From: Methanomassiliicoccales archaeon
GTDB taxonomy: Archaea; Thermoplasmatota; Thermoplasmata; Methanomassiliicoccales; UBA472
Direction of reading: 5' to 3'
DNA length: 64,000 nucleotides
Assembly: GCA_036677555.1 (NCBI GenBank)
Contig: JAVBWG010000011.1
Coordinates: 14,177 to 78,176 of the forward strand
The notes beneath the pieces are model-generated. The model searched no databases. It was given only the letters and a program-made list of their open reading frames with translations, and was not told the origin of the DNA. Both the position numbers and the translations under genes were made by a program. This document shows, piece after piece, positions 48,929 to 64,000 of the stretch; positions within the stretch are counted from its first letter, which is position 1; each line of letters starts with the position of its first letter.

Positions 48929-49525
48929 ATGGAAGGCCTGAAAAAAACGTCAGACAAAACGTCGGACAAGAGGGCTTCCGGCCGCCCTAATCAGGGCAAG
49001 ACGGAGACGATAAGGCAGCGGAAGATAGACGTTTATCTGCCTACGGTGGAGCTCATGCAGCAGTGGAAGAAGGCGGCCGAGGTCTCGGGCATGCCTCTGT
49101 CGAAATACATCCTGGAGGTGGTGGAGCAGCATCGCATGGGTGCGGTGAGGGTCACCATGCCCCCGGCTTTGCTTGAAGAAAAAGCCAACAAGCTGGAGAA
49201 GGAGCTGGCAGCCTTGCAGATGCGTTTCGATACGTTGAACTTGGCCTTCCACAACCAGGAGGTCGAGCTTTCTCGGCTGTCCAGTGCCTATCAGAGCGCC
49301 AAGGGCGGAAGCGTGGACGTCACTATGGTCAGGAGTTTGATCCAGGTATTACAAAGAGGTCCGAAGGGTGGCATGCACATAATCGACCTGATGGAATCGA
49401 TGCAGTTCGACAAGAACGACAACGACAAGATCAATAGATGGAGCGACGGACTGAACTTCCTTATGGACATAGAACTGGTTGGAAAGGACGAACGTGGGAA
49501 CCTGCGGTGGAAGGATGCGCGCTGA
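48929..49525 (+). CDS. Island-encoded hypothetical protein with ribbon-helix-helix-like segment
   Basis: KIDVYLPTVELMQQWKKAAEVSGMPLSKYILEVV (RHH-like), a coiled-coil middle, and a C-terminal wHTH-like region. Its end overlaps the integrase start. Confidence 0.5.
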   Translation: MEGLKKTSDKTSDKRASGRPNQGKTETIRQRKIDVYLPTVELMQQWKKAAEVSGMPLSKYILEVVEQHRMGAVRVTMPPALLEEKANKLEKELAALQMRFDTLNLAFHNQEVELSRLSSAYQSAKGGSVDVTMVRSLIQVLQRGPKGGMHIIDLMESMQFDKNDNDKINRWSDGLNFLMDIELVGKDERGNLRWKDAR

Positions 49526-50510
49526 AGTGAGCGAAAAGCGGGAGATGATGAGCAGCGCCCTTCTCGACCCGGACATGTTCGACTTGCTGGACAGCTTCAG
49601 GACCGAATGCAACCTGCAGGGAATGAGCAAGAGCTCAACGACCAGTTACGTTTCGTCGATGCGCATCTTCATGTTCTTTTTGATGTCCAAGCGCAAGACG
49701 GTCTTCGAGGTGGACAAGGACGTTCTGAAGTCGTACATTGACTACCTGATCAACCAAAGGAAGATCGCCTACCGGACGCTGAGCTATAACTTCTCCGCCC
49801 TGGCGGCGTTCTATGAATGGTTGCTGTTCGAGAACAAGATAAAGGAGAACCCGGTGCAGGCAGTTCGGAAACGGTATTTGAAGCGGTACAAGAACGGGGA
49901 AGGAATGCAGCAGGAAGGCCGCAAGCTTATCTCCGTGGAGGAGATGGCCATGCTCGTAAGGTCGATTGTCAGTTTGCTCGACCGGGCGATCGTGGTCACC
50001 CTGGCCAAGACCGGGGTGAGAAGAGGCGAGCTAATCAGTATGGACGTGGACGACATCGATTGGCAGAAGATGTCCATCAAGCTCAAGCCCACGGCCAAGA
50101 GAAGTAACCGGTTGGTGTTCTTTGACGAAGAAGCAAAGCAGGTACTGATGGAATGGATGAGCATGCGCCGATTGTACGCTCGTCCCGATTCTAAAGCGCT
50201 CTTCATTAGCCAGAGCGGTGGAAGGCTGAACAAGAACCATGTCTACGATATCGTGGTCCTGCACGCGGGACTGGTCGGTCTACACGACGCAAGCTCGGAC
50301 AAGCTGGATGAGCATTTCACACCGCACTGTTGCCGCCACTGGTTTACAACCCACCTAAGAAGGGCAGGGATGCAGCGTGAGCATATACAGGAGCTCAGAG
50401 GGGACTCGCGTCCGGACGCTATTGACATCTACTACCATATCGACCCGGAGGACCTCCGGTTGGCCTATCTGGCGTTCATACCGAAGTTGGGACTGTGTTC
50501 AACGAGGTGA
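49515..50510 (+). CDS. Tyrosine recombinase / phage-type integrase (XerC/D-like)
   Basis: SAM-like N-domain (YVSSMRIFMFFL). Catalytic residues GVRRGE, HCCRHWF (HxxR), IDIYYH (Tyr). ATG 49515 is preferred over the track start at 49479. Confidence 0.9.
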   Translation: MRAEVSEKREMMSSALLDPDMFDLLDSFRTECNLQGMSKSSTTSYVSSMRIFMFFLMSKRKTVFEVDKDVLKSYIDYLINQRKIAYRTLSYNFSALAAFYEWLLFENKIKENPVQAVRKRYLKRYKNGEGMQQEGRKLISVEEMAMLVRSIVSLLDRAIVVTLAKTGVRRGELISMDVDDIDWQKMSIKLKPTAKRSNRLVFFDEEAKQVLMEWMSMRRLYARPDSKALFISQSGGRLNKNHVYDIVVLHAGLVGLHDASSDKLDEHFTPHCCRHWFTTHLRRAGMQREHIQELRGDSRPDAIDIYYHIDPEDLRLAYLAFIPKLGLCSTR

Positions 50511-51214
50511 TATTATGGGAAAGAGCCAGAAGACAGGAAAAATAGTGAACGTTGACTAAGAGCAACTTGAGATCAGAGATGTCGTTTCTATTGAATAGTA
50601 TGATGTTCACGCGTATGAGAGAATTGAACTTAGCGATATCGATGAGCCCGAAGCGACCCGTCGCTGGGGTGCGGTCATCTGCTAGGGACAGAAATTCTTG
50701 TTCATCCAGAGTTCGACACTTGATCCAGTTAAAAAAATTATATGAGTTCGATAATGCTTTTTGCTAGATGCTACAGCGTCCAGCATTAGCTCATCAACCA
50801 AACCGTTTGAATTTCTCCAACATCAACTATCAAGGTCGGGAGAAACGGTGCTTTCGATGGGCAAAGGACTGAAAAAGCGGTTCTACTCGAACTTCAACGA
50901 TGTCAACAAGGCCTATTTTGGCTGAATATCTGTCGGGACGTAATAGAAAACACCCGATTTTGGGCGTTTTCGATGAAGTTCGGGCCTCAAAGGTCATCTG
51001 TTAAATTCTAAAACCAGTAAAATTTCGCTCGGTCAACTGCCTAAGTCGGGCATTGAGGTTGAGTTTAATAATCGAGAGGAAAGGGAAAGTGACGTTTAGA
51101 AATGATACGCGCAAATTGAAAAATTGGGATTTTATGCGCTCATAATTTATCAATATGTATAATATTAATTATAATTATATAACGATATTTTACATATCAA
51201 TTGAACCGTGTGGA

Positions 51215-51880
51215 CTAATTGGGTGGGAGGATTTGAACACCAATTTTTCTACATATAAAATACATGGCTAAAGCTTCATAGTTATTGAAAGTCTGTGATC
51301 CCATGGTCGATTCTGGCTCTTCCGAATTCCATTTATAATCAAAATCATGTTTCGCCATTCTATATAAAGTATTAATTTTCCATAAATATTGAATCAAATC
51401 GGAATTTAGCAGCTCCTTTTTTTCAATCGCACTAATTATTGTTCCCATTGGTTTTTTTTCGGCACCTTTAATTTGTTTACCAAATATTTTTTTTAAAACT
51501 TGTTCGATATGGGCACAGCTCATCTCTACCGAACTCCTAGATCTGGGTTCCCACCAAACTTGAATTGAATCCCTTAAAGCATACTGAAGAGGTCTATAGA
51601 TCGGGCGATCTTCAATATTGTATTTTCCAGTGAATCGTTTTCCATCTGAATAAAATAAATCTAGAACACCTTTTCCACCGATCTTATTTTCCAATGGAAT
51701 CATGATATTTTTAAGGATATCCATATCGGCAAATCGATCTCTTGAACCACAATTCAATCGCATTCCAGATAAGGATTTTCTTTTGTGGTACAATAATGTG
51801 ATAAGTACGCGATCTTCCCCATTAAATAATCTATCAAGAAGATAGTTAATTTCTTCATATTTTATTTTTGAATAGGTTAT
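51215..51880 (-). CDS. AT-rich small protein of unknown function (possible HEPN/DUF4145-like C-terminus); start codon uncertain
   Basis: The track ORF starts at TTG 51793. The frame stays open to 51888 and reads ...KYEEINYLLDRLFNGEDRVLITLLYHKRK. A GGAGGGG motif precedes an ATA codon at 51880. The C-terminal LIQYLWKINTLYRMAKHD is HEPN-like. Confidence 0.45.
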   Translation of the reverse strand: MTYSKIKYEEINYLLDRLFNGEDRVLITLLYHKRKSLSGMRLNCGSRDRFADMDILKNIMIPLENKIGGKGVLDLFYSDGKRFTGKYNIEDRPIYRPLQYALRDSIQVWWEPRSRSSVEMSCAHIEQVLKKIFGKQIKGAEKKPMGTIISAIEKKELLNSDLIQYLWKINTLYRMAKHDFDYKWNSEEPESTMGSQTFNNYEALAMYFICRKIGVQILPPN

Positions 51881-51976
51881 GGCAGCCCCTCCAATATTTC
51901 AATTTTATAAAGGAAAGAAATAACCGACAATAGACCGCTCCATTTAGAGATATATCTTTTCCAATTAGACTATGAC

Positions 51977-54900
51977 TTATTTTAGTTCTAATCCAGAGTT
52001 CACCTTTCTCAGCAGTTCATTGATTTTCGCTAGATCCTCTTTATTCTTCACTTTGGCGACATCCACTCGAAGGTGAAGCTTCAGATCGATATCGGGGTGT
52101 TGTCCGATGATGTCCGCGATAGCTTCGCTCAGGTTCTGCAAGTCTCCTATGGTGAGGTCCGCGTTTCCACTAAGGCCGCGTGGTCCAGGAACGGGTGTGG
52201 TTGATTTCGCAATCTTAAAAAATACGTTCTTAGATGCGCCCTCATCGCAGGGCCAAGAGGTCGAACCGGGAATAACTTCTATTAATCGCACCCGGACAGC
52301 CCCATCGATGGCCTCTCGTACGGTCTTCCACGGAAGATTGACCCGATGTTTTTTGGATAGAAAGAGGGCGACTGAATAGGCTGAAGCTTGTTCATCTTTC
52401 CACGCTTCATTCAAGTTTGGTGGAGTGATATCGAGGGTCTTGATCGGTTCAGGTGGCTGTCTGAGGCGAGCATCATCAGATAGCAAGCCGAGCGGGACCT
52501 CCTGTTCAAGCAGTGAAGCCGGTCCTGAGAGCATCCAAATATACCCCGCCTCGATGGCTTCCTTGATAGCGACTTCGACCACATCGGGAGGGGCCATTGG
52601 AATATGCATGCTTTCTTCAAAGCCGGATCGAGGCACCTTGATCGTCTTCGTCCCATCGAAGAGGTCCTTCACATCCTTAATCGAGATCTCTTCCCTCGAC
52701 CACAAACCGGTCAGTTCATCTCGGGCGAACATGCTTGATCGGATCGAAGTTAATTCCGCGAATTGTGGCAGGACAAGCTCCAGGCTAGGTTCCCTGAGAT
52801 CCGCCTCGCCAGGTGATTCTTTCCAAAAGGTCCTGATAGAGCGGTCTGGCCTCGTTAGGCGCAATACGAACTCACCCTGCAGCACGCCCTGCACCAAGGT
52901 GTCTAGGACCTCCTTACGCCTCAGCATCTTCGGTAGATGAGGGAACTGGGCGAACATACCAATGATATCGCTGACCCTTCTCGATTTGTCCCCCACTTTC
53001 CAGATGTCATATGGACCGTCAGGCAACAATGCCGAAGAGGTGATCGCCTGGTCCATGATCCTTGCCTTTTTCTCTGCCTTGATGGTTGCGAAGAGATCCG
53101 CACCGACGTTGATCTTGAAGGCGATGACATCGTTCTTCTCTGAAACGGTGACCACGATACAATATGCCTGAGCAATAGCCTCTGGCACGGACTTCTTAGA
53201 TCCATCCACATACGCGGAGACAGTGCTGAGGCGGCTCTCCCTGTCATCCCCTTTAACCTGTATTTGGGAGCGCACCTCATCCCAAGCGAGATAGTCCTTG
53301 ATCTTGTCCCGAGCACTTTGCAAAAGGTCCTTCGCCGGAGTGAGGATTATGATCGCGTTACGATATACGCGCGGTCGGTCCTCTGATGTCGTCTCATTGA
53401 TGAAGCGGGACGCCTCTGCGCTAGGCTTGCCGACCTCTGAAAAAGAGCGCGGCCCTAGAATTACTAGCTGGAGCTCACCGATATCCGCCACATCTGAAGG
53501 CCGTTCCGGCATATTGTAGACCTTAAGCCCAGAAGGTACGCCCGCCGTCAATGACCTGACACGCTTAGCGGTCTCATCGACCAGTCTGGATTCGACGAGG
53601 TCCGGAGATATCCGCACCAGCGCGTCGTCGTGCATGTGTTTGAGATTCGGCCTAGTGCCCAGCCTCCAGTTCTCCGGAAGCTCGTTCTTTCCACCGATGG
53701 CACTTTCCTCATCCAAGAACCAGGACTTATGGGTCCATGATAGCAGCGATTTCTGCAGATCGATCTTGTCCGGTCTGGAAGTACCGAGCATCACCATCAG
53801 ATCATGAGTTCGAGCTTTACGACCGATAGGTTGTGAATGTAAGAAGGTCGTGAAGACCGCCTGTTCCACCTCACGATGTCTGATTCCGGGCTGTTCGACC
53901 TGTATGCTCTTGGCCTTCTCAAGCTCGCCTTCGATTATCTTTGCCCATTCCTGCCTAGGGCCCTCAAAATCATCCGAGGCAGCGACTCCAGTCAGCTCCC
54001 TGGCTGCTTCGCTAAGTCCCTGCTTCTCTGGTTCTGCCAGGAAGACACTGACGCCGACCAAGGGTGAAGTGTCCCATTTACTCGCATCCCTCAGTGCTAA
54101 TGCGAACGTACGTAGAATACCCCTCGTCTTCTGGAAACCGTCCAAGCTGGTCCATTTGGTATAGAAAACATCCGTGAGTTCGGGGTGGAACGGATAGTTG
54201 TCGAGATATCGTTTCTCTGCGATCGCGCCTTCTTTCCGTGTCTCTTCGTCCAACTCAGCGATGCCTTTGAGAGCTTCGACCACCTGCGGTTTGAACGTAG
54301 AAGGATCCTTAATGGATTCGGGCTCAAAGAACCTGCGTCTGAGAATCTCCGCCACGTCGTCGCGACTGACCGGCTGCACACCTTCTTCTTTCTCACGACG
54401 GAAGATGTTGCCCATGTCATGGAGGAGCTCTTTACCCAGGTGGTCGCTCTTCTTGGGGTCAGTAGCTAAAAGCGATGCGATCAGTGCGCAGTTGGGTAGC
54501 TTGGTAGCGGCCTGTGTGAGACACTGGAAGAAGTTGAGAAGATTGTTCTTCCACTCGGGGTCCTGCGCCACCTTGACACGTGCGTACATCAAGACCTCGT
54601 CCAACAGAACGAGCGAGGCTAAACCATTCTTGGATGGAAGGGCGAGTATTTCCTTCAATAAAGGTTCGGCTGGATACTCCTCCCGCTCCTCCACTGATGA
54701 TGAGCCACTGAGGATCTTCAGCCCGGCGTCACCGCCGAGCTGGTAGGCCAGGATGCTCCAAGGATGTTTCAGCATGCGCGTCTTTCCATCTGGCCCCCTG
54801 GTCTTGACACCTACGAGCAGGTCGATCTTGTCAAAGACCAGAACGGCCATCCTAGCCCGGGGTAGTTGGACACCGATATGTGAACGAAAATCGAGAACGG

Positions 54901-55246
54901 AAGGTATGTCTGGAAGGCATTCTGGATCATTGAAGAGATGGTATAGGGTGATCAAGGTGTGGGTCTTGCCTCCACCGTAGGTGAGCTCCAACTGCCTTAC
55001 CGCCTTATCGTTCTGACCTGCCAACCGCAATGCCACGTCCTTGGCCAGTTCCCTCATGTTGTATGTCGGGTAAGTAAAGGCGAAGAATTTCTTGGGATCG
55101 CGGTATAAATCGGTACCTTCGTCCATTACAACATCATAGAGGTCGGCTGCGAACTGGGATAGGGAGAGGTCCCCATTCTTGAGGTCCTCACTCAACCTGA
55201 CAACCTGATGCCACGGCTTCCAATTGCTCTTGTTCCGCTCTTTCAT
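51977..55246 (-). CDS. DUF499-type P-loop ATPase (COG1483-like)
   Basis: FAADLYDV...FFAFTYPT...LELTYGGGKTHTL (Walker A), LVLLDEVLMY (Walker B). ATG 55246 has GGAGGT 7 nt upstream. Confidence 0.85.
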   Translation of the reverse strand: MKERNKSNWKPWHQVVRLSEDLKNGDLSLSQFAADLYDVVMDEGTDLYRDPKKFFAFTYPTYNMRELAKDVALRLAGQNDKAVRQLELTYGGGKTHTLITLYHLFNDPECLPDIPSVLDFRSHIGVQLPRARMAVLVFDKIDLLVGVKTRGPDGKTRMLKHPWSILAYQLGGDAGLKILSGSSSVEEREEYPAEPLLKEILALPSKNGLASLVLLDEVLMYARVKVAQDPEWKNNLLNFFQCLTQAATKLPNCALIASLLATDPKKSDHLGKELLHDMGNIFRREKEEGVQPVSRDDVAEILRRRFFEPESIKDPSTFKPQVVEALKGIAELDEETRKEGAIAEKRYLDNYPFHPELTDVFYTKWTSLDGFQKTRGILRTFALALRDASKWDTSPLVGVSVFLAEPEKQGLSEAARELTGVAASDDFEGPRQEWAKIIEGELEKAKSIQVEQPGIRHREVEQAVFTTFLHSQPIGRKARTHDLMVMLGTSRPDKIDLQKSLLSWTHKSWFLDEESAIGGKNELPENWRLGTRPNLKHMHDDALVRISPDLVESRLVDETAKRVRSLTAGVPSGLKVYNMPERPSDVADIGELQLVILGPRSFSEVGKPSAEASRFINETTSEDRPRVYRNAIIILTPAKDLLQSARDKIKDYLAWDEVRSQIQVKGDDRESRLSTVSAYVDGSKKSVPEAIAQAYCIVVTVSEKNDVIAFKINVGADLFATIKAEKKARIMDQAITSSALLPDGPYDIWKVGDKSRRVSDIIGMFAQFPHLPKMLRRKEVLDTLVQGVLQGEFVLRLTRPDRSIRTFWKESPGEADLREPSLELVLPQFAELTSIRSSMFARDELTGLWSREEISIKDVKDLFDGTKTIKVPRSGFEESMHIPMAPPDVVEVAIKEAIEAGYIWMLSGPASLLEQEVPLGLLSDDARLRQPPEPIKTLDITPPNLNEAWKDEQASAYSVALFLSKKHRVNLPWKTVREAIDGAVRVRLIEVIPGSTSWPCDEGASKNVFFKIAKSTTPVPGPRGLSGNADLTIGDLQNLSEAIADIIGQHPDIDLKLHLRVDVAKVKNKEDLAKINELLRKVNSGLELK

Positions 55247-55250
55247 CTCT

Positions 55251-56050
55251 TCAACCTCCAAAATTTGATAAATCCCTGGGTGCGCTTACCGCGCCACCCC
55301 TGGATATGATATGATTGCTGATGCTCTCCAACAAGCTTCTTTCCTCGTCTCCTTCCTTGGAGAGTTCTATTATCGCTTGCAGGATATGATGGAACGTTTT
55401 ATTCTTCAACAGCCCGTTCCCATCTAGATATTCATCGACCTTCGCCATGTCACCGTCTTTCCACAGATGCATGAGTTTATGCATTCGATCGATCATCGGA
55501 GCAGGCCGGCCATTGTTGTCCAAACCAAGAGTTTTACCAACGCGTTTGTTCCATTGTTTCAATCTAAGGGCGCTACTGGTGCCTTCCTCGAAGACATCCT
55601 CTTCTAGAACATCGCCTTCACCCTCATCCGGTTCTTCTATTCCTCCCGACCTGAGGAGTACATCATACTCACCTACGAGGGCACTATCCGAAAGGTCGCA
55701 GGATACCGCATAAAGAATGCAAGAACCGGCCGGTGCATCCCCAAATCCAAAGTCGTGACGATGCAACAAGTAGTAAGTTGTGATATTATCAAGGTCGCGG
55801 TCTCGTTCACCATCTTCACCTAGGACCCGTCCAACAACGAAGTCCATTACAATTCGTCTCACCTCGACGAGAAATTCTGAAACTGTCATGATTTGACCGG
55901 GATTGTCGGCCTTTTTTACAACTGAGTGCTTACTGTATGCCTCGAGCGCAGGACCCGTAGCAGCCCAGATAAAGTCAGGACCGCGAATTCCAGAATCCCA
56001 ATACTCACGAAGACGAAGCTGAATGTTAGAACGCATTTCTTCCAAGACCT
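55251..56050. repeat. About 0.8-kb high-identity direct repeat with 58321-59125 (3' ends of the two methyltransferase genes)
   Basis: The C-terminal 265 codons align without gaps until the acidic linker and have few substitutions (VLEEMRSNIQLRLREYWD...SISNHIISRGGAV). Confidence 0.8.
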
Positions 56051-58304
56051 GTGCGTCCCATCCTTGCCGCGCAGCGAGAGGTCTTTTTTTACATACTAAC
56101 CATATTGAAGAAGATAATGCCGCTGACGACAATGCTCTTGATCTAGTAGCTCGCTCAGTTTGAATTGGCCAACTGGATTCTACCACAAAACCGGCTCTAA
56201 TGATACTCGATACTAAAGTTTCCCAAGCATCTGGTTTTTTATGAGCGAAGACAATAGTCAAAATACCATTTTGGTTGAGCAAATTGTAACATTTTTGGAA
56301 TGTTTGTGCCATCCCGTTTTCATATGCCTGTTTTGAGAGAGCCGAATTGCCCGCAAATCTGCCTGAATCGTCGATCAGCTCACCATCTTGTTTTTTACTG
56401 TCCCATTTAATAGCAAGTGGCATTTTAAAAACAGCATTATGTTCATCATCTAGATCATAAAGGATCCTTCGAAGCCATACATAAAAGAAATCCATTGTGT
56501 CCGAATAAGGTATCGCATCATAATATGGTGGATCTGTTGTAATTAAATCATATGGACCTTTTAATTTATTACTTATTGCTGAAGAATTTATTATTATCGG
56601 TTTTTCCAAGCCGCTTACTACGAGATTGCTCATCATACGATTTGCAGCAATCATAGAATCCAACATTGAAAAGAAAGAGCCACATCCATCTGCAATAATT
56701 GAGACCTCAGCAAAATCCCAACTCACTGGAAGAGCAAATCTTGAAAATACATTTCTTATTTGTTCATTCGGCACATTCCATGAACAAATTGTTGAGGAAT
56801 GATCCAGTAGCTTATCGAATACACAAACTAGATAGGAGATTATTGCCTTCCTCCATTCATCTGGATATCCATTTTCTTTAAGTATTTCCATTAATGATCT
56901 GATCTTTAATACAAAGATGCCGTGACCAAATAATTGTCTTTTTGTGAAAACCATCGACCATTTATTGATTCCATACTTGTCAACAGAAAATGCCCGACTC
57001 GCCCCATTACCTCCTATTGGAGTCGGCTCATCTGGAACACCGAATGGGATGTTATTGAAAATTTCTTCCACCCTCGCCCCTGCATCTTCCGCTGCTTTAA
57101 GATCCTCTGCAACCGGTAGTCGATACTCCTTTCCTTTCTCCCCATCAATGACCACTGCCGTCATCATCGCTCCTATGCGGCCTTCAACGCCCTCGCGACG
57201 GATATCTTCCATGCTCATCGCTACCGTGCCTGGCTTGCCACAGTGAGGGCACCATGCACCATTACGGCTCATCGTGCCTTGCCCAAGACGCTTGTCATTT
57301 TCAATTCTTTCAGACTTACTGAGCCCTTCCTGCGCAACATTTGATTGTATCTCAAAGACCAACGACGATCGGTCATCATTTGTCCTCATCATCAGTAGAA
57401 CTCGCTTTCTTTCATTCTTGCATAGCCACCTCGTTTTCAGCAGAGGTATCGTCGACCGGCAGTTCTTGCAGGTGACCGTCTTTGCCCAGAGATATGCCAC
57501 CGTCGGTTTGCCTGCAACGCTTGGATAATAAGGTGTCAGATCATTCTTTGCCTGCTCCAACACCCACCACCCCCACGAACGCACATGCCAGGACAAATCG
57601 GCAATAGGCATTTCGGCTAAGATGTTGGATTCCAAAGCTAATTCGTCGAATGAAGCAAGTGATTTTTGCTTTTTATTTTTGGCTGACGGTTTGATCCCTT
57701 GCATTTTATAGAAATCATCCATGAACTCTTTATTCTCGAGGATAAAGTTTGGCAATGGTAGTTTCTGCCCAGCCAATTGCTGTGGGTACTCCAAAGTGCA
57801 TTTCTCTATGAACCAGGCTACAGGATTGATGTCGATGGACGTAGCCTCACATCCTAGTCTCATTGCTTCTAAAGGGATTGCTCCACCGCCTGCAAAGGGG
57901 TCCAATACCTTGGGCACCTCGCCACCATATGCTTTCCTAATTTCCTTCCGGAAGTAGTTTAGGTCAGATTCGGATTCCCTGCCCCAGTGGAGGATTCCTC
58001 CTTCTGTTTCCTCGACAAAGAATGTGTTCTCCTTGCCGTCCTTCTTTGTGCGCTTCTGCACGCGCACGACTTTTCCCCCGATCCGCTCCAGCAATTCCTT
58101 CCGCTTATCCGGGTCACCCGGATCTGGCAACAAGGTGGCAATGAGCGCCGCCCGGCAAGCTGCCAGGGGCCTTCGTGCTGGCCAGATGTGCAATGTTGAT
58201 ATATGTCCATGACGCACGTTCTTCTCTTGCAATGATTCAATGGATGCTTGCTTTAGGCAGAATCCTCTCTCAATCAATCTCGGTTTATTCTCATTCTCTG
58301 CCAT
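55251..58304 (-). CDS. DUF1156-type DNA methyltransferase with Zn ribbon (copy 2, promoter-distal)
   Basis: STLHIWPARRPLAA, DPFAGGGAIPLEA (motif I), CKNCRS...CPHCGKPG, ITTDPPYYDA (motif IV). ATG 58304; the track start at 58418 runs into the upstream gene. Confidence 0.85.
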   Translation of the reverse strand: MAENENKPRLIERGFCLKQASIESLQEKNVRHGHISTLHIWPARRPLAACRAALIATLLPDPGDPDKRKELLERIGGKVVRVQKRTKKDGKENTFFVEETEGGILHWGRESESDLNYFRKEIRKAYGGEVPKVLDPFAGGGAIPLEAMRLGCEATSIDINPVAWFIEKCTLEYPQQLAGQKLPLPNFILENKEFMDDFYKMQGIKPSAKNKKQKSLASFDELALESNILAEMPIADLSWHVRSWGWWVLEQAKNDLTPYYPSVAGKPTVAYLWAKTVTCKNCRSTIPLLKTRWLCKNERKRVLLMMRTNDDRSSLVFEIQSNVAQEGLSKSERIENDKRLGQGTMSRNGAWCPHCGKPGTVAMSMEDIRREGVEGRIGAMMTAVVIDGEKGKEYRLPVAEDLKAAEDAGARVEEIFNNIPFGVPDEPTPIGGNGASRAFSVDKYGINKWSMVFTKRQLFGHGIFVLKIRSLMEILKENGYPDEWRKAIISYLVCVFDKLLDHSSTICSWNVPNEQIRNVFSRFALPVSWDFAEVSIIADGCGSFFSMLDSMIAANRMMSNLVVSGLEKPIIINSSAISNKLKGPYDLITTDPPYYDAIPYSDTMDFFYVWLRRILYDLDDEHNAVFKMPLAIKWDSKKQDGELIDDSGRFAGNSALSKQAYENGMAQTFQKCYNLLNQNGILTIVFAHKKPDAWETLVSSIIRAGFVVESSWPIQTERATRSRALSSAALSSSIWLVCKKRPLAARQGWDAQVLEEMRSNIQLRLREYWDSGIRGPDFIWAATGPALEAYSKHSVVKKADNPGQIMTVSEFLVEVRRIVMDFVVGRVLGEDGERDRDLDNITTYYLLHRHDFGFGDAPAGSCILYAVSCDLSDSALVGEYDVLLRSGGIEEPDEGEGDVLEEDVFEEGTSSALRLKQWNKRVGKTLGLDNNGRPAPMIDRMHKLMHLWKDGDMAKVDEYLDGNGLLKNKTFHHILQAIIELSKEGDEERSLLESISNHIISRGGAVSAPRDLSNFGG
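58075..58184. repeat. 110-bp block identical to 61124-61233 (direct repeat inside the two methyltransferase genes)
   Basis: Compared base by base: cccccgatccgctccagcaattcc...cttcgtgctggcca is identical in both copies. Offset 3049 bp. Confidence 0.95.
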
Positions 58305-58320
58305 CAACCAGCCCCTCCAT

Positions 58321-61300
58321 TTAGCCCCCAAAATCCGAGAATCCCTTTGGGGCATTGACCGCACCACCCCTGGAAATGATATGATTGCTGATGCTCTCCA
58401 ACAGGCTTCTTTCCTCATCTCCCTCCTTAGAGAGTTCTATTATCGCTTGCAGGATATGATGGAAGGTCTTGTTCTTGAGGAGCCCATTGTTAACTAGATA
58501 ATCATCGACCTTCGCTATATCGCCATCCTTCCACAGTTGCATTAGCTTGTGCACCCGATCGATCATCGGTGCAGGACGACCATTGCTATCCATTCCCAAG
58601 TTCTTGCTCTTACGCTTGTTCCACGCCTTCAATCTGAAGGTGCTGCTGGTGCCTTCCTCGATGAAATCCTCTTCGGTTTCCTCACCCTCGTCTTCCGCGG
58701 GCTCTTCCATTCCTCCAGATCTGAGGAGGATATCATTTTCGCCCGCAAGGGCACTGTCTGAAAGGTCGCAGGATACTGCGTATAAGATGCAAGAGCCCGC
58801 CGGAGCATCCCCAAACCCGAAGTCATGACGGTGCAATAGATAGTAAGTCGTGATGTTGTCCAAATCGCGGTCTCTTTCACCCTCTTCCCTCAGGACGCGG
58901 CCGACCACGAAATCCATGACAATCCGCCTCACTTCAATTAAAAATTCTGTGACCGTCATTAATTGACCTGGGTCATTCGCTTTCTTCACAATCGCGTGCT
59001 TGCTATATGACTCAAGTGCAGGACCGGTAGCCGCCCAAATGAAGTCTGGACCGCGAATTCCAGCGTCCCAATACTCACGCAGACGAAGTTGAATGTTGGA
59101 ACGCATTTCTTCAAGGACCTTGTTGTCCCATCCTGGTTTCGATTCATTAGAACGTTTCCTGCAAACGAGCCATACGGAAGATGATAATGCTGCAGAGGAC
59201 AGAGCCCTTGTACGATTGCCCATCTCCGTTTGTATCGGCCAACTTGCTTCGACTGTGAAACCGGATCGTACGATTGCCGAGACTAGAGTCTCCCAAGCTT
59301 CTGGCTGCTTATGGGCGAACACCATCACGAATCTACCATTGGAGGTAAGTGATTCTCTGCAGTTTGAGAAAACATCAGCCATGCCATCTTCATAGGCGAT
59401 ACGTGAACTCTCCCGGTTCCCCGAGAATCGCGAAGAATCATCGATTAGCTCTCCATCATTTTTGTCCTTGTTCCATTTGGGTGCAAGAGCCTCCTTGAAT
59501 GATCCTTCGAATTCATCTGAGAATCCCCACATTGTTCTTCTAAGCCATACATAGAAGAAATCCATGAGAAGTGAGTAAGAGATTGCGTCATAGTATGGTG
59601 GGTCTGTCACAATCACATCATATTTTTCGGCAAATTGTTGTTTAGCACTTTGATTATCTACTCGCACTTTCGAATTCGGAGAGAATGATTTCAGAGAGTG
59701 ATCAATATAGTGGCAAATAATATTGAGTTGATTCCAATAAGATCCTGTCTTGTTACCGATTGGATTGGTCTCACAGTAATCCCATGCAATGGGCATGCGA
59801 TATCCTGAGAATGTCCCAGATACATTCTGACGAGTGACATCCCAATGACATACAGCACTGGATCTATCAACCGTTCTGTCGACTGCAATGCATAGGTAAC
59901 TCATGATTGCATCTGCCCATTCCTTCGGAACATCGGAAGAATCCATCAATATTCTTGCTTCCCGTGTGTACTTTACGAAGGCTGCTAGAGCATTTAGTTG
60001 TCTGCGAGTGAATTGCTTGCCCCAAGTGTTTGCTCCATATTGAACACACCACGTGTTGCCCTTTGAATCTTCAACAATTTCTTCGCCAGGGATTCCAAAA
60101 GGGATATCTTGAAACCGGGCTAGAAGATTAATATCTAGGCCTGTCCCTGACTCAACCTCAAGCTGCGATGGGGTTCTAAACTCCCGAATATCGCCACTTT
60201 CAATGACCACGGCGTACATTTCACTATCAAAATGGCCTCTTGCATACTGATCTCTCAAGGCCAATTGAATATCTTCCATCGTCATTGACACGGTGCCTGG
60301 CTTGCCGCAGAAAGGACACCACGCCCCCTTACCTCCTTTTGTTCCAATTGTCTCTGATTTTGGCAAATGGGCAGCTTCATATGGTGTACATTCAATAATG
60401 CTATACGAGATCCTGTTGGCTACGGAATCGGGGTTAATTTTGAGCAGAATCTGCCTCCCATTTTTTTTACATAGCCATCTCGTTTTCATAAGGGGAATGC
60501 TCGCACGGCAATTCTTGCACTTCACAGTGCGAGCCCATAGATACGCTACAGTCGGCTTGCCATCGCTAGAATGATAATACATTTCAAGGTCATTCTTTGC
60601 TTTCTGCAGTACCCACGAACCCCAGGCACGCACGTGCCAGGCCAAATCGGCCAATGGAGTTTCTAATGATTTGCCAGAAACCATCTTCTCCCCGTCGAAA
60701 GAGGCGAGCGAGCTCTGCTTCTTCATCTTGGCCGATGGTTTGATTCCCTGTGCCTCACAGAACTTGTCAATAAACTCCTTGTTCTCGAGGATGAAGTCAG
60801 GCAGGGGCACCTTCTTCCCAGCCAGGCGCTGCGGGTACTCCAATGTGCATTTCTCGATGAACCAGGCTACAGGATTGATGTCTATGGCTGTGGCTTCGCA
60901 TCCCAGTCTCATCGCTTCTAGTGGAATCGCTCCTCCTCCGGCAAAAGGATCCAGCACCTTAGGTGCCCTGCCACCATATGCTTTCCTTATCTCCTCCCGG
61001 AAATAGTCTAGGTCCGGTCCTGATTCCCTTCCCCAGTGGAGAATGCCTCCCTCTGTCTCCTCGACAAAGCGCACTTCCTCCTTGCCGTCCTTCTTGGTGC
61101 GCTTCTGCACTCGCACGACTTTGCCCCCGATCCGCTCCAGCAATTCCTTCCGCTTATCCGGGTCACCCGGATCTGGCAACAAGGTGGCAATGAGCGCCGC
61201 CCGGCAAGCTGCCAGGGGCCTTCGTGCTGGCCATATATGCAATGTGGATATGTGGCCATAACGCACGCTCTTCTCATGCACAGAGTTAATGGATGCTTGC

Positions 61301-61353
61301 TTGAGGCAGAACCCTCTTTCTATCAATCTCGGTTTATCTTCATTCTCTGCCAT
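58321..61353 (-). CDS. DUF1156-type DNA methyltransferase with Zn ribbon (copy 1, promoter-proximal)
   Basis: Same motifs (DPFAGGGAIPLEA, CKNCRA...CPFCGKPG, VTDPPYYDA). ATG 61353 shares TGATG with the helicase stop. Confidence 0.85.
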   Translation of the reverse strand: MAENEDKPRLIERGFCLKQASINSVHEKSVRYGHISTLHIWPARRPLAACRAALIATLLPDPGDPDKRKELLERIGGKVVRVQKRTKKDGKEEVRFVEETEGGILHWGRESGPDLDYFREEIRKAYGGRAPKVLDPFAGGGAIPLEAMRLGCEATAIDINPVAWFIEKCTLEYPQRLAGKKVPLPDFILENKEFIDKFCEAQGIKPSAKMKKQSSLASFDGEKMVSGKSLETPLADLAWHVRAWGSWVLQKAKNDLEMYYHSSDGKPTVAYLWARTVKCKNCRASIPLMKTRWLCKKNGRQILLKINPDSVANRISYSIIECTPYEAAHLPKSETIGTKGGKGAWCPFCGKPGTVSMTMEDIQLALRDQYARGHFDSEMYAVVIESGDIREFRTPSQLEVESGTGLDINLLARFQDIPFGIPGEEIVEDSKGNTWCVQYGANTWGKQFTRRQLNALAAFVKYTREARILMDSSDVPKEWADAIMSYLCIAVDRTVDRSSAVCHWDVTRQNVSGTFSGYRMPIAWDYCETNPIGNKTGSYWNQLNIICHYIDHSLKSFSPNSKVRVDNQSAKQQFAEKYDVIVTDPPYYDAISYSLLMDFFYVWLRRTMWGFSDEFEGSFKEALAPKWNKDKNDGELIDDSSRFSGNRESSRIAYEDGMADVFSNCRESLTSNGRFVMVFAHKQPEAWETLVSAIVRSGFTVEASWPIQTEMGNRTRALSSAALSSSVWLVCRKRSNESKPGWDNKVLEEMRSNIQLRLREYWDAGIRGPDFIWAATGPALESYSKHAIVKKANDPGQLMTVTEFLIEVRRIVMDFVVGRVLREEGERDRDLDNITTYYLLHRHDFGFGDAPAGSCILYAVSCDLSDSALAGENDILLRSGGMEEPAEDEGEETEEDFIEEGTSSTFRLKAWNKRKSKNLGMDSNGRPAPMIDRVHKLMQLWKDGDIAKVDDYLVNNGLLKNKTFHHILQAIIELSKEGDEERSLLESISNHIISRGGAVNAPKGFSDFGG
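61124..61233. repeat. Partner copy of the 110-bp identical block
   Basis: See 58075-58184. Confidence 0.95.
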
Positions 61354-64000
61354 CAACCAGTCCCTCCACCATTTCCAATAGATGCACGCAAAATGTCCCC
61401 TTCATTGACCATGAAACTGCCCTTTTGCTTGAAGCTTAAACGGTAGGCCGGGTCTTGTACACGCATAAGACGAGGCACGCTCTCGCAATCGAAAACAGCA
61501 TAGAGCCAGTACTTATGGCGCATGTTCGCCGCACGGTCCCACTCATTCTCGGTGATCTCCACGCCGCCGCCACCGCCCCTTCCCTTCACTTCGATACTTC
61601 TGATCTCCCCATCAGGACGACGGGAAAGTAGATCGAAGCCAGGGTGCGCTTGCAATCCCGCTTGCATCGCCAGTTCAGGCGTGTGCACATCGATGACCTC
61701 GGCACCCTCATTTTCCTCCATGGACCTCACTATATCCATGGACATAGCCTCGATGTCTAGATCATATCTCTTCCAATCCTCAGGATCAGATGAAGGCATG
61801 ACGAGGGCGTGGGCGATCATCTCCACATCGCCAATATCAAGCAGATCGATCTCTTTCGCCAACGCTTGGAACGATCTGTCCCTGACCTCGGTGAGCTCGC
61901 GTTGCATCTCACGGACCCGTTCCATCTTCAATCCGACCTCGGGGTCGTCCCTCTTCTTGCCCAATTCAGTGCGTTTCTTGGCCAGCTCCACTTCTTGGAG
62001 GTTGAAACCCCTGCGCATCAATTCCTGCCTTGAGGCGTTCAGTTTGGAAATACGCTCATGGCAGGCCCGCAACATCTCTCCCTGGATATCATGTACCAGG
62101 AAGGTCGGCACCATCCTAGTCAATGCCTCCCCTTTGGACATCATGGTCAAGGTCTTCATATCATGTCCTTCGTTCCCTCGAAGCAGAAGGAGCTTTTCCA
62201 GGGGTGCTTGCACCATCGCTCCCGATTCGTCTTGCACCACCGCTACCAATCGTTCATCGACGATGATCTCTCGAGCTAATGCTGGTACCGATGGGTCCGC
62301 ACGGCGAACGATGCTCAATTTGGCAAGATGGAACAGGTATGGGCTTTTTGCCGATGGATCGATGAACACACCTCCCCTTAGCGCGGCGGCTGAGCACCTC
62401 TCGTCGAGGAGATCGCTTATGCGGTCGAAGATGATCTCACCAGGGCGAAGGAAGATCGCCTTGGCCTCCTTGGATCGGTTGACGGTCATGGCACCGCGAA
62501 TATCATCCGGATAATCCTCCATCAGCGGAATGATCCTATCAAGGGCCTTCGGTTTCTGAGCGAAAAGGGAGAAGGTACCCCTCAGATCCCCTTCCCATCC
62601 GATGCCTAGGAGCGGCAGTGCCGACTCTAAGAAACTTGCGACGTATGCGGGTAGCAAATAACGATATTCCTCTTGAGCTAATCTTTCGCGCTCTTCGGGG
62701 AGATATCTTGCCACATCGCCACCTCCCCCGAATAACGACTCTTCCTTGGCTTTGATGGCTCTTACCTGCTCCTCGGTGAGCTTACCCTCGATGATGCGGC
62801 TAGCACCATCCTCGTCCCTGAGCGCCATGGCCATGATATCTTTGATGCTGACACCTTCGAAAACGCGGCCGATGACGTCGAACACCTTGTCCGACCGCAT
62901 TTCTAGGCGGATCCTCTCCATCTTCTCCAGCAGGGTCTGTAGTACCTTACCCTCTCGGGTGTTCGAGGAGATCATATTGATTATTACAACAGGGTCATGC
63001 ATCTGACCGTAACGATGGATCCGACCCATCCTCTGCTCGAGGCGTGCCGGATTCCAAGGAATGTCGTAATTGATCATTAGCCAGCAGAACTGAAGGTTGA
63101 TCCCCTCACCTGCGGCATCGGTGGCGATCAGATACTGAGCCCCATCGGCATGATGGTCTTTGCGGAAGAATGCGATCTGTTCCTCTCGGGCGGCGAAATC
63201 CATTCCGCCGTGGATCGAAGCTATCTTGCCGGTTAGCCCCTTTCCCTCCAATTTACGCATTAAGTAAGTGAGGGTGTCCCGATGCTCCGTAAAAATGATG
63301 GCCTTCTCATCGCGATATTTGTCATCGGTAAGCAATTCTTCCAGTCTGTCGAATTTTGATTCCGTCCCTCGTCGCATGACCTCATCGGACAAAGCGAGTA
63401 GCTTTTCAACCTCGATCTTCTCTTTTTCCAATTGAGAGAGGTTGAAGTTCACCATGACATCCATGATCTTCTTCTCATCGACCTCGTTCTGCTCCTCATC
63501 GCCTTCTGAGGACTCTTCTTCTCCCGTCCGATCCTCGAAGTCATCGCTCACCTTCAGGCGGCTTTGTTGTGCCTGTAATTTCTGTTCGTTCAAATCTCCA
63601 CATCGCAAGGCGTCAATCAGAAATTGAAGTCTCTCCACCCTTCTTTCGAACGAACGCTTTAAAGCATAGGTGGATGAGGCCATACGTCGCTGGAAAACGC
63701 TAGCTGCTAAGCTTGCCGCAGAACGGTTCAGCATTCGCGCCATATTATAGAAGTTATCGATATAGACGGTCGTCTTCTCGTAGAGATCTCTTTCATAGCC
63801 ATCACCCTCGGAGAGCGCGTAACTGCCCGTGTGACATTCCCGTGATGGGTAGATCTTCGAGCCGTCGAAGCGGACCATCTCTTCCTTGGTACGACGAATG
63901 AAATGCTCCTTCCTACAATCTTCTGGGAACGCATCAAATGCTTCCTTATTTGGGAGTAGCGTTGGTTCTAGTAGCCGCCAGAGACAGTAATATGGATAAT
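61353..64000 (-). CDS. SNF2/SF2 helicase with C-terminal PD-(D/E)xK-like (DUF3883-like) module; N-terminus beyond window
   Basis: Frame is open from 64000 (..YPYYCLWRLLEPTLLPNKEAFDAFPEDCRKEHFIRRTKEEMVRFDG). LIATDAAGEGINLQ, PWNPARLEQRMGRIHRYGQ. Tail GFDLLSRRPDGEIRSIEVKG...ITENEW...KYWLYAVF. Confidence 0.85.
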   Translation of the reverse strand, partial: YPYYCLWRLLEPTLLPNKEAFDAFPEDCRKEHFIRRTKEEMVRFDGSKIYPSRECHTGSYALSEGDGYERDLYEKTTVYIDNFYNMARMLNRSAASLAASVFQRRMASSTYALKRSFERRVERLQFLIDALRCGDLNEQKLQAQQSRLKVSDDFEDRTGEEESSEGDEEQNEVDEKKIMDVMVNFNLSQLEKEKIEVEKLLALSDEVMRRGTESKFDRLEELLTDDKYRDEKAIIFTEHRDTLTYLMRKLEGKGLTGKIASIHGGMDFAAREEQIAFFRKDHHADGAQYLIATDAAGEGINLQFCWLMINYDIPWNPARLEQRMGRIHRYGQMHDPVVIINMISSNTREGKVLQTLLEKMERIRLEMRSDKVFDVIGRVFEGVSIKDIMAMALRDEDGASRIIEGKLTEEQVRAIKAKEESLFGGGGDVARYLPEERERLAQEEYRYLLPAYVASFLESALPLLGIGWEGDLRGTFSLFAQKPKALDRIIPLMEDYPDDIRGAMTVNRSKEAKAIFLRPGEIIFDRISDLLDERCSAAALRGGVFIDPSAKSPYLFHLAKLSIVRRADPSVPALAREIIVDERLVAVVQDESGAMVQAPLEKLLLLRGNEGHDMKTLTMMSKGEALTRMVPTFLVHDIQGEMLRACHERISKLNASRQELMRRGFNLQEVELAKKRTELGKKRDDPEVGLKMERVREMQRELTEVRDRSFQALAKEIDLLDIGDVEMIAHALVMPSSDPEDWKRYDLDIEAMSMDIVRSMEENEGAEVIDVHTPELAMQAGLQAHPGFDLLSRRPDGEIRSIEVKGRGGGGGVEITENEWDRAANMRHKYWLYAVFDCESVPRLMRVQDPAYRLSFKQKGSFMVNEGDILRASIGNGGGTG

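Follow-up and report, generated by a model that had tools for sequence, protein, structure and literature searches.

Organization of the locus

We analysed a 64,000-nt stretch of DNA from a Methanomassiliicoccales archaeon (NCBI assembly GCA_036677555.1, contig JAVBWG010000011.1, positions 14,177 to 78,176 of the forward strand), hereafter called the window, which carries a putative defence locus of the Hma type (helicase, methylase, ATPase) with two methylase genes. The genes lie on the minus strand and run from 64000 to 51977 in the order SNF2 helicase-nuclease, two DUF1156 methylases, and DUF499 ATPase. The 3' part of hmaA (61353..64000, open beyond the window end) encodes, as assigned with PADLOC and Pfam, an SNF2/RapA-like helicase core that continues at its C-terminal side into a fused PD-(D/E)xK nuclease. 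It comprises the C-terminal 881 of 1187 codons, and the gene start is predicted near 64916. Methylase 1 (hmaB1, 58321..61353, 1010 aa) presents a DUF1156 domain at its N-terminus, then an N6-adenine-type methylase that a target-recognition insert interrupts, and finally a C-terminal region that is conserved. Methylase 2 (hmaB2, 55251..58304, 1017 aa) has the same architecture with another target-recognition insert. The last gene, hmaC (51977..55246, 1089 aa), encodes a DUF499 ORC/Cdc6-type AAA+ ATPase.

The genes are tightly packed. The helicase stop and the methylase 1 start share the TGATG at 61355-61351, a 4-nt overlap read from the sequence. The methylase 1 stop lies at 58323-58321. Next come a 16-nt spacer (atggaggggctggttg, 58305..58320), which supplies the ribosome-binding GGAGGGG, and the methylase 2 ATG at 58304. 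After the methylase 2 stop (55253-55251) there are 4 nt before the ATPase ATG at 55246, with GGAGGT at 55258-55253. A preliminary description, made from the letters and open reading frames (ORFs) of the window, had given this same-strand layout and these junctions, and direct reading of the sequence bore them out. The helicase frame is also open to nt 64000 as described there, and the full-length protein (P0129) extends past the window.

Every peptide motif quoted in that description was located in the translations. The helicase contains HFIRRTKEE (63879-63905), LIATDAAGEGINLQ (63090-63131), and MGRIHRYGQ (63003-63029). Its nuclease end contains GFDLLS (61623-61640), IEVKG (61581-61595), and ITENEW (61539-61556), inside the Pfam NOV_C / PD-(D/E)xK nuclease domain (61464..61751, residues 750-845 of the fragment). 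Both methylases harbor DPFAGGGAIPLEA, DPPYYD, and a CxxC...CxxC ribbon. The ATPase harbors TYGGGKTHTL (54953-54982) and LVLLDEV (54593-54613), which hold the Walker A GGGKT and the Walker B LLDE, respectively.

Assignment to the Hma family

The preliminary description had named the families as DUF1156, DUF499, an SF2/SNF2 helicase, and a DUF3883-like module, and had proposed profile hidden Markov model (HMM) and PADLOC searches. We ran both, and Pfam recovered these families far beyond chance: Helicase_C (2e-24) and NOV_C (DUF3883-like, 1e-14) in the helicase fragment, DUF1156 in methylase 1 (3.3e-15) and methylase 2 (1e-16), and DUF499 in the ATPase (1.4e-15). With PADLOC, all four core proteins matched Hma models. 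HmaA scored 1.5e-93 with the fragment and 4.7e-151 with the full-length P0129 (model positions 70-1131 of 1176), HmaB 3.6e-109 for methylase 1 and 7.5e-107 for methylase 2, and HmaC 2.9e-77 for the ATPase, whose residue 9 onward aligned to model position 3. PADLOC gave secondary matches to BrxHI/BrxHII (1e-58) and PglXI (about 1e-7). Among the matches listed, which is the scope of all our counts of related loci, the order helicase, methylase, ATPase on one strand was the same in 80/80 related genomic loci.

Hma was defined in 2021 by Payne et al. from 1,638 operons in 26 phyla (PMC8565338). Rakesh & Krishnan renamed it in 2026 as the type-1 DUF499-centred BREX-related (BR) system, found in 2446 taxa, 203 of them archaeal (PMC12839542). 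They describe a Swi2/Snf2 helicase with a C-terminal PD-(D/E)xK nuclease, a DUF1156 N6-methylase with its recognition insert placed behind core strand 2, and an ATPase of the DUF499 ORC/Cdc6 type (PMC12839542). Since gene content and order fit that published description, we assign the locus to type-1 BR, and it is almost certainly a complete Hma system. The likeness covers the three core genes with their order and domain content, and the setting on a mobile island with other defence genes adjoining. The archaeal host is known for the family, and an archaeal COG1743-DUF499-SNF2-nuclease operon has been on record since 2020 (PMC7641849). The locus differs in that it has two intact methylases with unrelated inserts instead of one, and in that its ATPase is without the N-terminal HEPN extension that is found in about half of type-1 systems (PMC12839542).

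We compared the locus with the sister systems. MANTIS / Gao_RL (type-2 BR; Shaw et al. 2026 preprint) shares a homologous DUF499 ATPase and a DUF1156-type methylase; however, its effector is a PLD(HKD)-helicase, whereas here it is an SNF2-PD-(D/E)xK protein. Membership in type 2 was rejected because the NCBIfam MANTIS equivalogs scored 87-178 bits, far under their cut-offs of 1000-1200, and because neither a PLD nuclease nor an MtsB-like gene was present. For the PLD (HKD) nuclease-helicase effector MtsD, the model NF042964 gave 113 bits against a cut-off of 1100, with the helicase C-domain only. An MtsB-like co-activator gene was not found between 51.9 and 64 kb with Pfam and PADLOC; MtsB goes under DUF3870 in the MANTIS preprint and under DUF3780 in the classification of BR systems (PMC12839542). 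Type-3 BREX (BrxC, PglXI, BrxHII, PglZ and others) has a related ATPase, methylase, and SNF2 helicase, but PglZ, BrxA, and BrxB/iSTAND are absent here and the helicase carries its own nuclease. We rejected type-3 BR / BREX membership because Pfam and PADLOC matched no PglZ among the proteins encoded at 48.9-64 kb and on the upstream extension (Logan contig L122).

The preliminary description had the kind of system right, a modification-based self/non-self defence module on an island (integrase-bearing and low in GC), and overstated its novelty. It had called the system a candidate with no worked-out mechanism, whereas the system has a name and a literature (PMC8565338, PMC12839542, PMC7641849, PMC11232893). 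It had also given the restriction step and the role of the ATPase as not known to be characterised. Helicase and nickase activities of HmaA were reported in 2024 to be required against phage T4 (PMC11232893), and the role of the DUF499 ATPase has been resolved in the sister type-2 MANTIS (bioRxiv 10.64898/2026.09.23.753747). It had said the same of archaeal examples, and this stands: we found no experimental test of an archaeal Hma in the literature. Apart from its twin intact methylases, the locus is typical of a family that is already known.

The two methylases

Both methylases present the order FxGxG, insert with CxxC...CxxC, and DPPY. In methylase 1, motif I DPFAGGG is at 60913-60951, motif IV DPPY at 59587-59604, and the Zn ribbon reads CKNC/CPFC. 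The two proteins are 64% identical overall, and this identity is unevenly distributed: 82% in residues 1-290, 30% in residues 300-575, and 82% in residues 701-1010. The divergent part corresponds to the target-recognition insert, located at 59629..60456 in methylase 1 (aa 300-575) and at 56556-57407 in methylase 2 (aa ~300-583). The methylase 1 insert is about as distant from every other relative (32-35% identity).

In MANTIS, the exchange of ~80 residues in the homologous insert switches both methylation and restriction specificity (bioRxiv 10.64898/2026.09.23.753747). With such unlike recognition inserts, the two methylases here would probably read different DNA motifs, a dual specificity that we favour slightly. 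Since the N- and C-terminal parts are shared and the inserts are unrelated, one ATPase and one helicase-nuclease would probably be sent to two motifs.

Both methylases look functional. Each ORF is full length (>1000 codons) with intact motif I, motif IV, and 4-Cys ribbon, and all the columns that are invariant across 80 family members are kept in both. The ratio of nonsynonymous to synonymous substitution (dN/dS) between them is 0.06-0.13 in the shared N and C parts, and therefore both copies are under purifying selection. Methylase 2 is identical to the database protein P0005. No solved structure was detectable by sequence for either the methylase or the ATPase. An AlphaFold2 (AF2) model of methylase 1 (pLDDT 73.9) matched only generic Rossmann methylases in the PDB, and it showed helical bundles at residues 743-994 with pLDDT of about 70-89.

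To see how rare a methylase pair is, we counted methylase ORFs with the family HMM in 120 fetched loci, which included a fragment of our own locus (L001). The 119 other loci were 80 bacterial genomic (all at most 55% identical), the 4 closest archaeal relatives, 1 metagenomic, and 35 from IMG/VR (34 with a methylase match); the metagenomic one was the single relative given by a metagenome scan. A single methylase was present in 118 of these 119 loci. The six matching plasmid records also had one copy each, and duplicated methylases are not mentioned in the main text of the classification paper (PMC12839542). One locus, L076, has an additional small, weakly matching methylase ORF next to its single HmaB.

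The sole other locus with two HmaB genes was L099 (IMG/VR UViG_3300021387_004151; L099:2087-14121), a canonical Hma system with a tandem HmaB pair that is 39% identical. Its second HmaB is truncated (777 aa), and the catalytic DPPY has become TLPY, so that the pair looks like one active and one inactive methylase. The HmaC of this locus carries a 190-aa N-terminal extension. Duplicated methylases are therefore atypical, as the preliminary description had put it, and what is new here is the pair of intact methylases with different recognition inserts, the system itself being already known.

Origin of the methylase pair

The adjacency of the two methylase genes rests on one NCBI contig. We considered whether the tandem pair could be an artefact, with two strain variants of a single methylase gene put next to each other during assembly. 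The source contig may be metagenome-derived, and the short contigs of the Logan assembly do not reach across the pair. However, the conserved parts of the two genes are 77-79% identical, far under the level that confuses assemblers, and because of this low DNA identity the copies would be neither collapsed nor mis-joined. The joint also has a specific structure, in which a stop codon precedes the helicase 3'-end relic. Finally, the independently assembled Logan contigs L122 (run SRR22741940, identical to the window in the overlap) and L001 end at window positions 61204 and 55389, exactly 30 nt into a 110-nt and a 35-nt repeat that both methylase genes share. Contigs that break at shared exact repeats are the expected behaviour of a k=31 graph when both copies are real, which argues that both are in the reads. 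We consider an artefact highly improbable.

To address the origin of the pair, we used two related islands. The first, L085, is a syntenic island of a related archaeon and shares the flanking genes (aIF-1A, Rio1, the integrase, and a gene of 198 aa) as well as the PDC-M23 neighbour; the second is L082. Each holds a single, different methylase allele. Compared with L085, the helicase gene is 87-100% identical in DNA per 150-nt window (94-100% except for the last 150 nt), and the ATPase gene is 90-100% identical by sliding window. In contrast, both window methylases differ strongly from the L085 allele, with 64-82% DNA identity in the N part, 33-56% in the insert, and 69-79% in the C part, and synonymous sites are saturated in these comparisons. 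Because near-identical helicase and ATPase genes flank highly diverged methylase alleles, the methylase ORF behaves as an exchangeable cassette set between conserved partners. An exception is the last ~800 nt of methylase 1, which are 88-97% identical to the L082 allele. By these comparisons, the methylase alleles are themselves mosaics.

The junctions point to how the pair arose. The spacer and preceding bases upstream of methylase 2 read AAATGGAGGGGCTGGTTGATGG, and the hmaA/hmaB1 junction of the window, L085, and L082 reads AAATGGTGGAGGGACTGGTTGATGG. Judged from this match, the AAATGGAGGGGCTGGTTGATGG spacer is a relic of the hmaA 3' end. Moreover, L085 and L082 have a native junction that agrees with methylase 2 in its 3' end and in its spacer to hmaC, whereas the 3' end of methylase 1 does not agree with it. 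Since a helicase 3'-end relic precedes methylase 2, the simplest history that the evidence points to is unequal or illegitimate recombination between two hma loci with different alleles. The pair would then not be a recent in-place duplication.

An exact-match scan found a 110-nt tract, at nt 121-230 in each gene, that hmaB1 (61124..61233) and hmaB2 (58075-58184) share without a mismatch, both on the minus strand. It is set in DNA that is 77-79% identical, which suggests a later gene conversion. A second exact tract of 35 nt, near the 3' ends, is also common to both genes.

We also tried a blastn-based reading, in which a 91% identical 'backbone' consisted of the methylase 1 N part and the methylase 2 C part, and the 4.2 kb between them were foreign. 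It was rejected because the blastn pairs merely ran on from the near-identical helicase and ATPase genes. By sliding-window identity and synonymous divergence (dS), both methylases are equally diverged from the L085 allele.

An alternative to independent specificities is that the two methylases serve one asymmetric motif, one strand each, as the M1/M2 enzymes of type IIS systems, turning a hemimethylating system into a fully methylating one. MANTIS and BREX read asymmetric 6-bp sites and methylate one strand, so the complementary strand could fall to a second enzyme whose insert differs, and an insert identity of 30% fits this too. But an obligate pair sits badly with the single methylase of 118/119 related loci; the single, different alleles of L085 and L082 fit independent specificities better, and the twin looks like a merger of alleles from different loci. 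We find a strand pair rather unlikely.

The helicase-nuclease

The preliminary description had proposed extending the sequence beyond 64000 to recover the helicase N-terminus and further genes. We recovered both, the first in P0129 and the upstream genes in L122, which extends past this point. A homology search with the helicase fragment retrieved P0129, a protein of 1187 aa that is 100% identical over the fragment, and P0129, methylase 2 (P0005), and the ATPase all belong to one NCBI contig. The Pfam domains of P0129 are an Xre-type HTH_3 (residues 16-53), an SNF2/ResIII region (123-301), Helicase_C (521-637), and NOV_C (1056-1151, 1.8e-15). Residues 54-122 have no Pfam assignment, and the helicase N-terminus lies outside the window. 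The N-terminal Xre-type HTH_3 is present in this HmaA and in most of its 120 best homologues, and the N-terminal element of type-1 helicases has been described as a TUDOR domain (PMC12839542). The nearest solved structure to the helicase by sequence is RapA.

Four nuclease residues, D789, E803, K805, and E819 in the numbering of the fragment, show 100% conservation across 85 HmaA sequences. By the motif order GFD, ExK, NEW only, they appear to match D1084, E1104, K1106, and E1121 of the Halomonas HmaA, which are needed for nicking and for defence against T4 (PMC11232893). In that work, the isolated HmaA nuclease domain nicked supercoiled DNA, and HmaA alone reduced T4 yield about 100-fold, depending on helicase motif VI and on the nuclease residues (PMC11232893). 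We retain the helicase-nuclease as the probable effector, as the preliminary description had inferred.

Proposed mechanism and alternatives

All the steps of the mechanism that we propose are taken by analogy from the sister system MANTIS and from Halomonas HmaA. In MANTIS, the DUF499 ATPase loads the methylase on DNA, and ATP turnover permits repeated hemimethylation of an asymmetric 6-bp site (bioRxiv 10.64898/2026.09.23.753747). The recognition insert of the methylase sets both methylation and restriction specificity, and restriction needs all components (bioRxiv 10.64898/2026.09.23.753747). In our locus, HmaC would load either HmaB1 or HmaB2 onto DNA via their conserved N- and C-terminal parts, which presumably dock HmaC and HmaA. 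The insert would read a short asymmetric motif, and host copies would be marked by N6-adenine methylation, each methylase marking its own motif. On an unmarked foreign motif, the same recognition complex would recruit or license HmaA, whose SNF2 motor would translocate on DNA and whose C-terminal PD-(D/E)xK domain would nick or cut it.

The reading that we favour as a whole, with moderate confidence, is a complete Hma system on an integrase-bearing island with two methylase alleles that were merged by unequal recombination. More tentatively, we suggest that a shared ATPase and helicase-nuclease may serve two interchangeable methylase 'specificity subunits', that the methylase ORF may be hot-swappable between islands, and that the twin may be kept for a doubled target range; this is possible and falls a little short of probable. 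Comparable cases are type I restriction-modification (R-M) loci that have several alternative hsdS genes and two-methylase type IIS systems, with one motor or nuclease, more than one specificity determinant, and specificity modules swapped by recombination in conserved flanks. However, the proteins are unrelated, and the specificity module here forms one domain of a 1000-residue methylase. Because the methylase copies are in direct orientation, an inversion switch could not operate here.

Several points weigh against the reading that we favour. Methylase 1 was not found in a 15-billion-protein collection with either start, and this collection does hold the three other Hma proteins encoded on that NCBI contig (HmaA, methylase 2, and the ATPase). 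The depositor's annotation might treat methylase 1 differently. As L099 shows, a second copy may be a leftover in decay. The methylation-directed model for type 1 is borrowed from type 2, and MANTIS needs the MtsB co-activator, whereas type-1 systems are without MtsB. Moreover, in the Halomonas work HmaB overexpression gave no phage escape from the protection that HmaA alone conferred against T4 (PMC11232893).

The first of these points bear on the possibility that one copy is a redundant, unused leftover of a cassette-swap intermediate, heading for loss. The methylase slot has clearly been swapped between related islands, and both the degenerate copy of L099 and the missing database entry for methylase 1 fit such a leftover. 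Yet both ORFs are without defects, keep all the invariant residues, and have a low dN/dS. Both are translationally coupled with GGAGGG upstream, and the 110-nt gene-conversion tract implies a long co-residence. A leftover is an unlikely explanation here.

A further alternative follows the proposal of the Halomonas authors: HmaA could act alone as an abortive-infection-like nickase, the methylases and the ATPase being dispensable for defence or otherwise employed. Besides the lack of effect of HmaB overexpression on phage susceptibility, about 15-20% of hmaA genes are missing hmaB or hmaC in their neighbourhood. But coupling between the genes is tight at this locus, where one junction overlaps by 4 nt and the others leave gaps of 16 nt and 4 nt, and the genes are co-linear in all 80 related loci. 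In addition, MANTIS cannot restrict without its homologous ATPase and methylase. T4 DNA is also hypermodified, so T4 is a weak probe of methylation dependence. We regard an HmaA that acts alone as distinctly unlikely.

Hma/type-1 BR is among the most widespread defence systems, and the roles of its methylase and ATPase are drawn by analogy. Under the favoured reading of two alleles with their own specificities, the twin locus would be a natural experiment, in which docking regions are shared and recognition inserts differ. If each methylase had its own motif and restriction target with shared partners, the MANTIS rule, that the methylase insert directs both modification and restriction, would hold for type 1 and for archaea. 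Across the three islands, near-identical helicase and ATPase genes against saturated methylase divergence document the renewal of specificity.

Genomic island and neighbouring genes

The hma genes lie on an island integrated in an archaeal chromosome, as seen from the archaeal housekeeping neighbours, the GC drop, and a XerA-like recombinase. The neighbours at 46-48 kb are aIF-1A, a Rio1 kinase, and a universal archaeal KH protein. GC is 0.59 over the first 48 kb and drops to 0.33-0.54 within the island (0.45-0.53 in the hma genes). The XerA-like tyrosine recombinase (49515..50510, plus strand) matches Pfam Phage_integrase (1e-24) and NCBIfam recomb_XerA_Arch (1.8e-45, below its cut-off), and an integrase is at the same position in L085. 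No tRNA gene was present at the island border, and no att repeats were found within 46-64 kb, where 50511-51214 had no att-aimed analysis.

A 198-aa gene with no family match, possibly an excisionase or island regulator, overlaps the integrase start (window 48929-50510 on the plus strand for both; L085:19417-20998). Together they show 91% DNA identity and occupy the same chromosomal site beside aIF-1A and Rio1 in the related archaeon. The ~700 nt between the integrase and the next gene (50511-51214) are AT-rich and without a convincing ORF, and they have no L085 counterpart beyond 50652.

Downstream of hmaC there is a small gene of an uncharacterised family (51215..51880, minus strand, 221 aa) with an apparent ATA start. 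The preliminary description had counted it as an extra member of the operon, and this did not hold. It starts 96 nt (ATA 51880) to 252 nt (first ATG, 51724) past the ATPase stop, across an AT-rich spacer. It has its own TATA-like TTTATAAAA box, GGAGGGG 5 nt before the ATA, and a GC of 0.33. In addition, L085 and L082 lack the small gene and have unrelated genes in its place between hmaC and the integrase. We regard it as unrelated island cargo and not as part of Hma.

The small gene seemed to be an ORFan in a word-indexed search that found only itself, which was overturned by an exhaustive HMMER search with relatives in 91 representative clusters of about 205-270 aa. The family N-termini align with the window only if the start is ATA 51880, which gives the 221-aa product, and this ATA is also present in the Logan contig. 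Residues R92, R96, Y100, R115, G146, K177, H178, and R211 are invariant in the family. There was no match in Pfam, PADLOC, NCBIfam, PHROG, or PDB, and a single-sequence AF2 model was unusable (pLDDT 41.5). The sole plasmid match of the family sits among hypothetical genes.

On the other side of the locus, directly upstream of hmaA, L122 contains the PADLOC candidate defence pair PDC-M23A/B (L122:1397-5334). PDC-M23A has 271 aa (2e-65), and PDC-M23B is a HamB-like DEAD helicase of 1040 aa (bit score 1139). The pair is also present in the syntenic island L085, and in L122 a MazE-like gene of 51 aa lies farther upstream of it.

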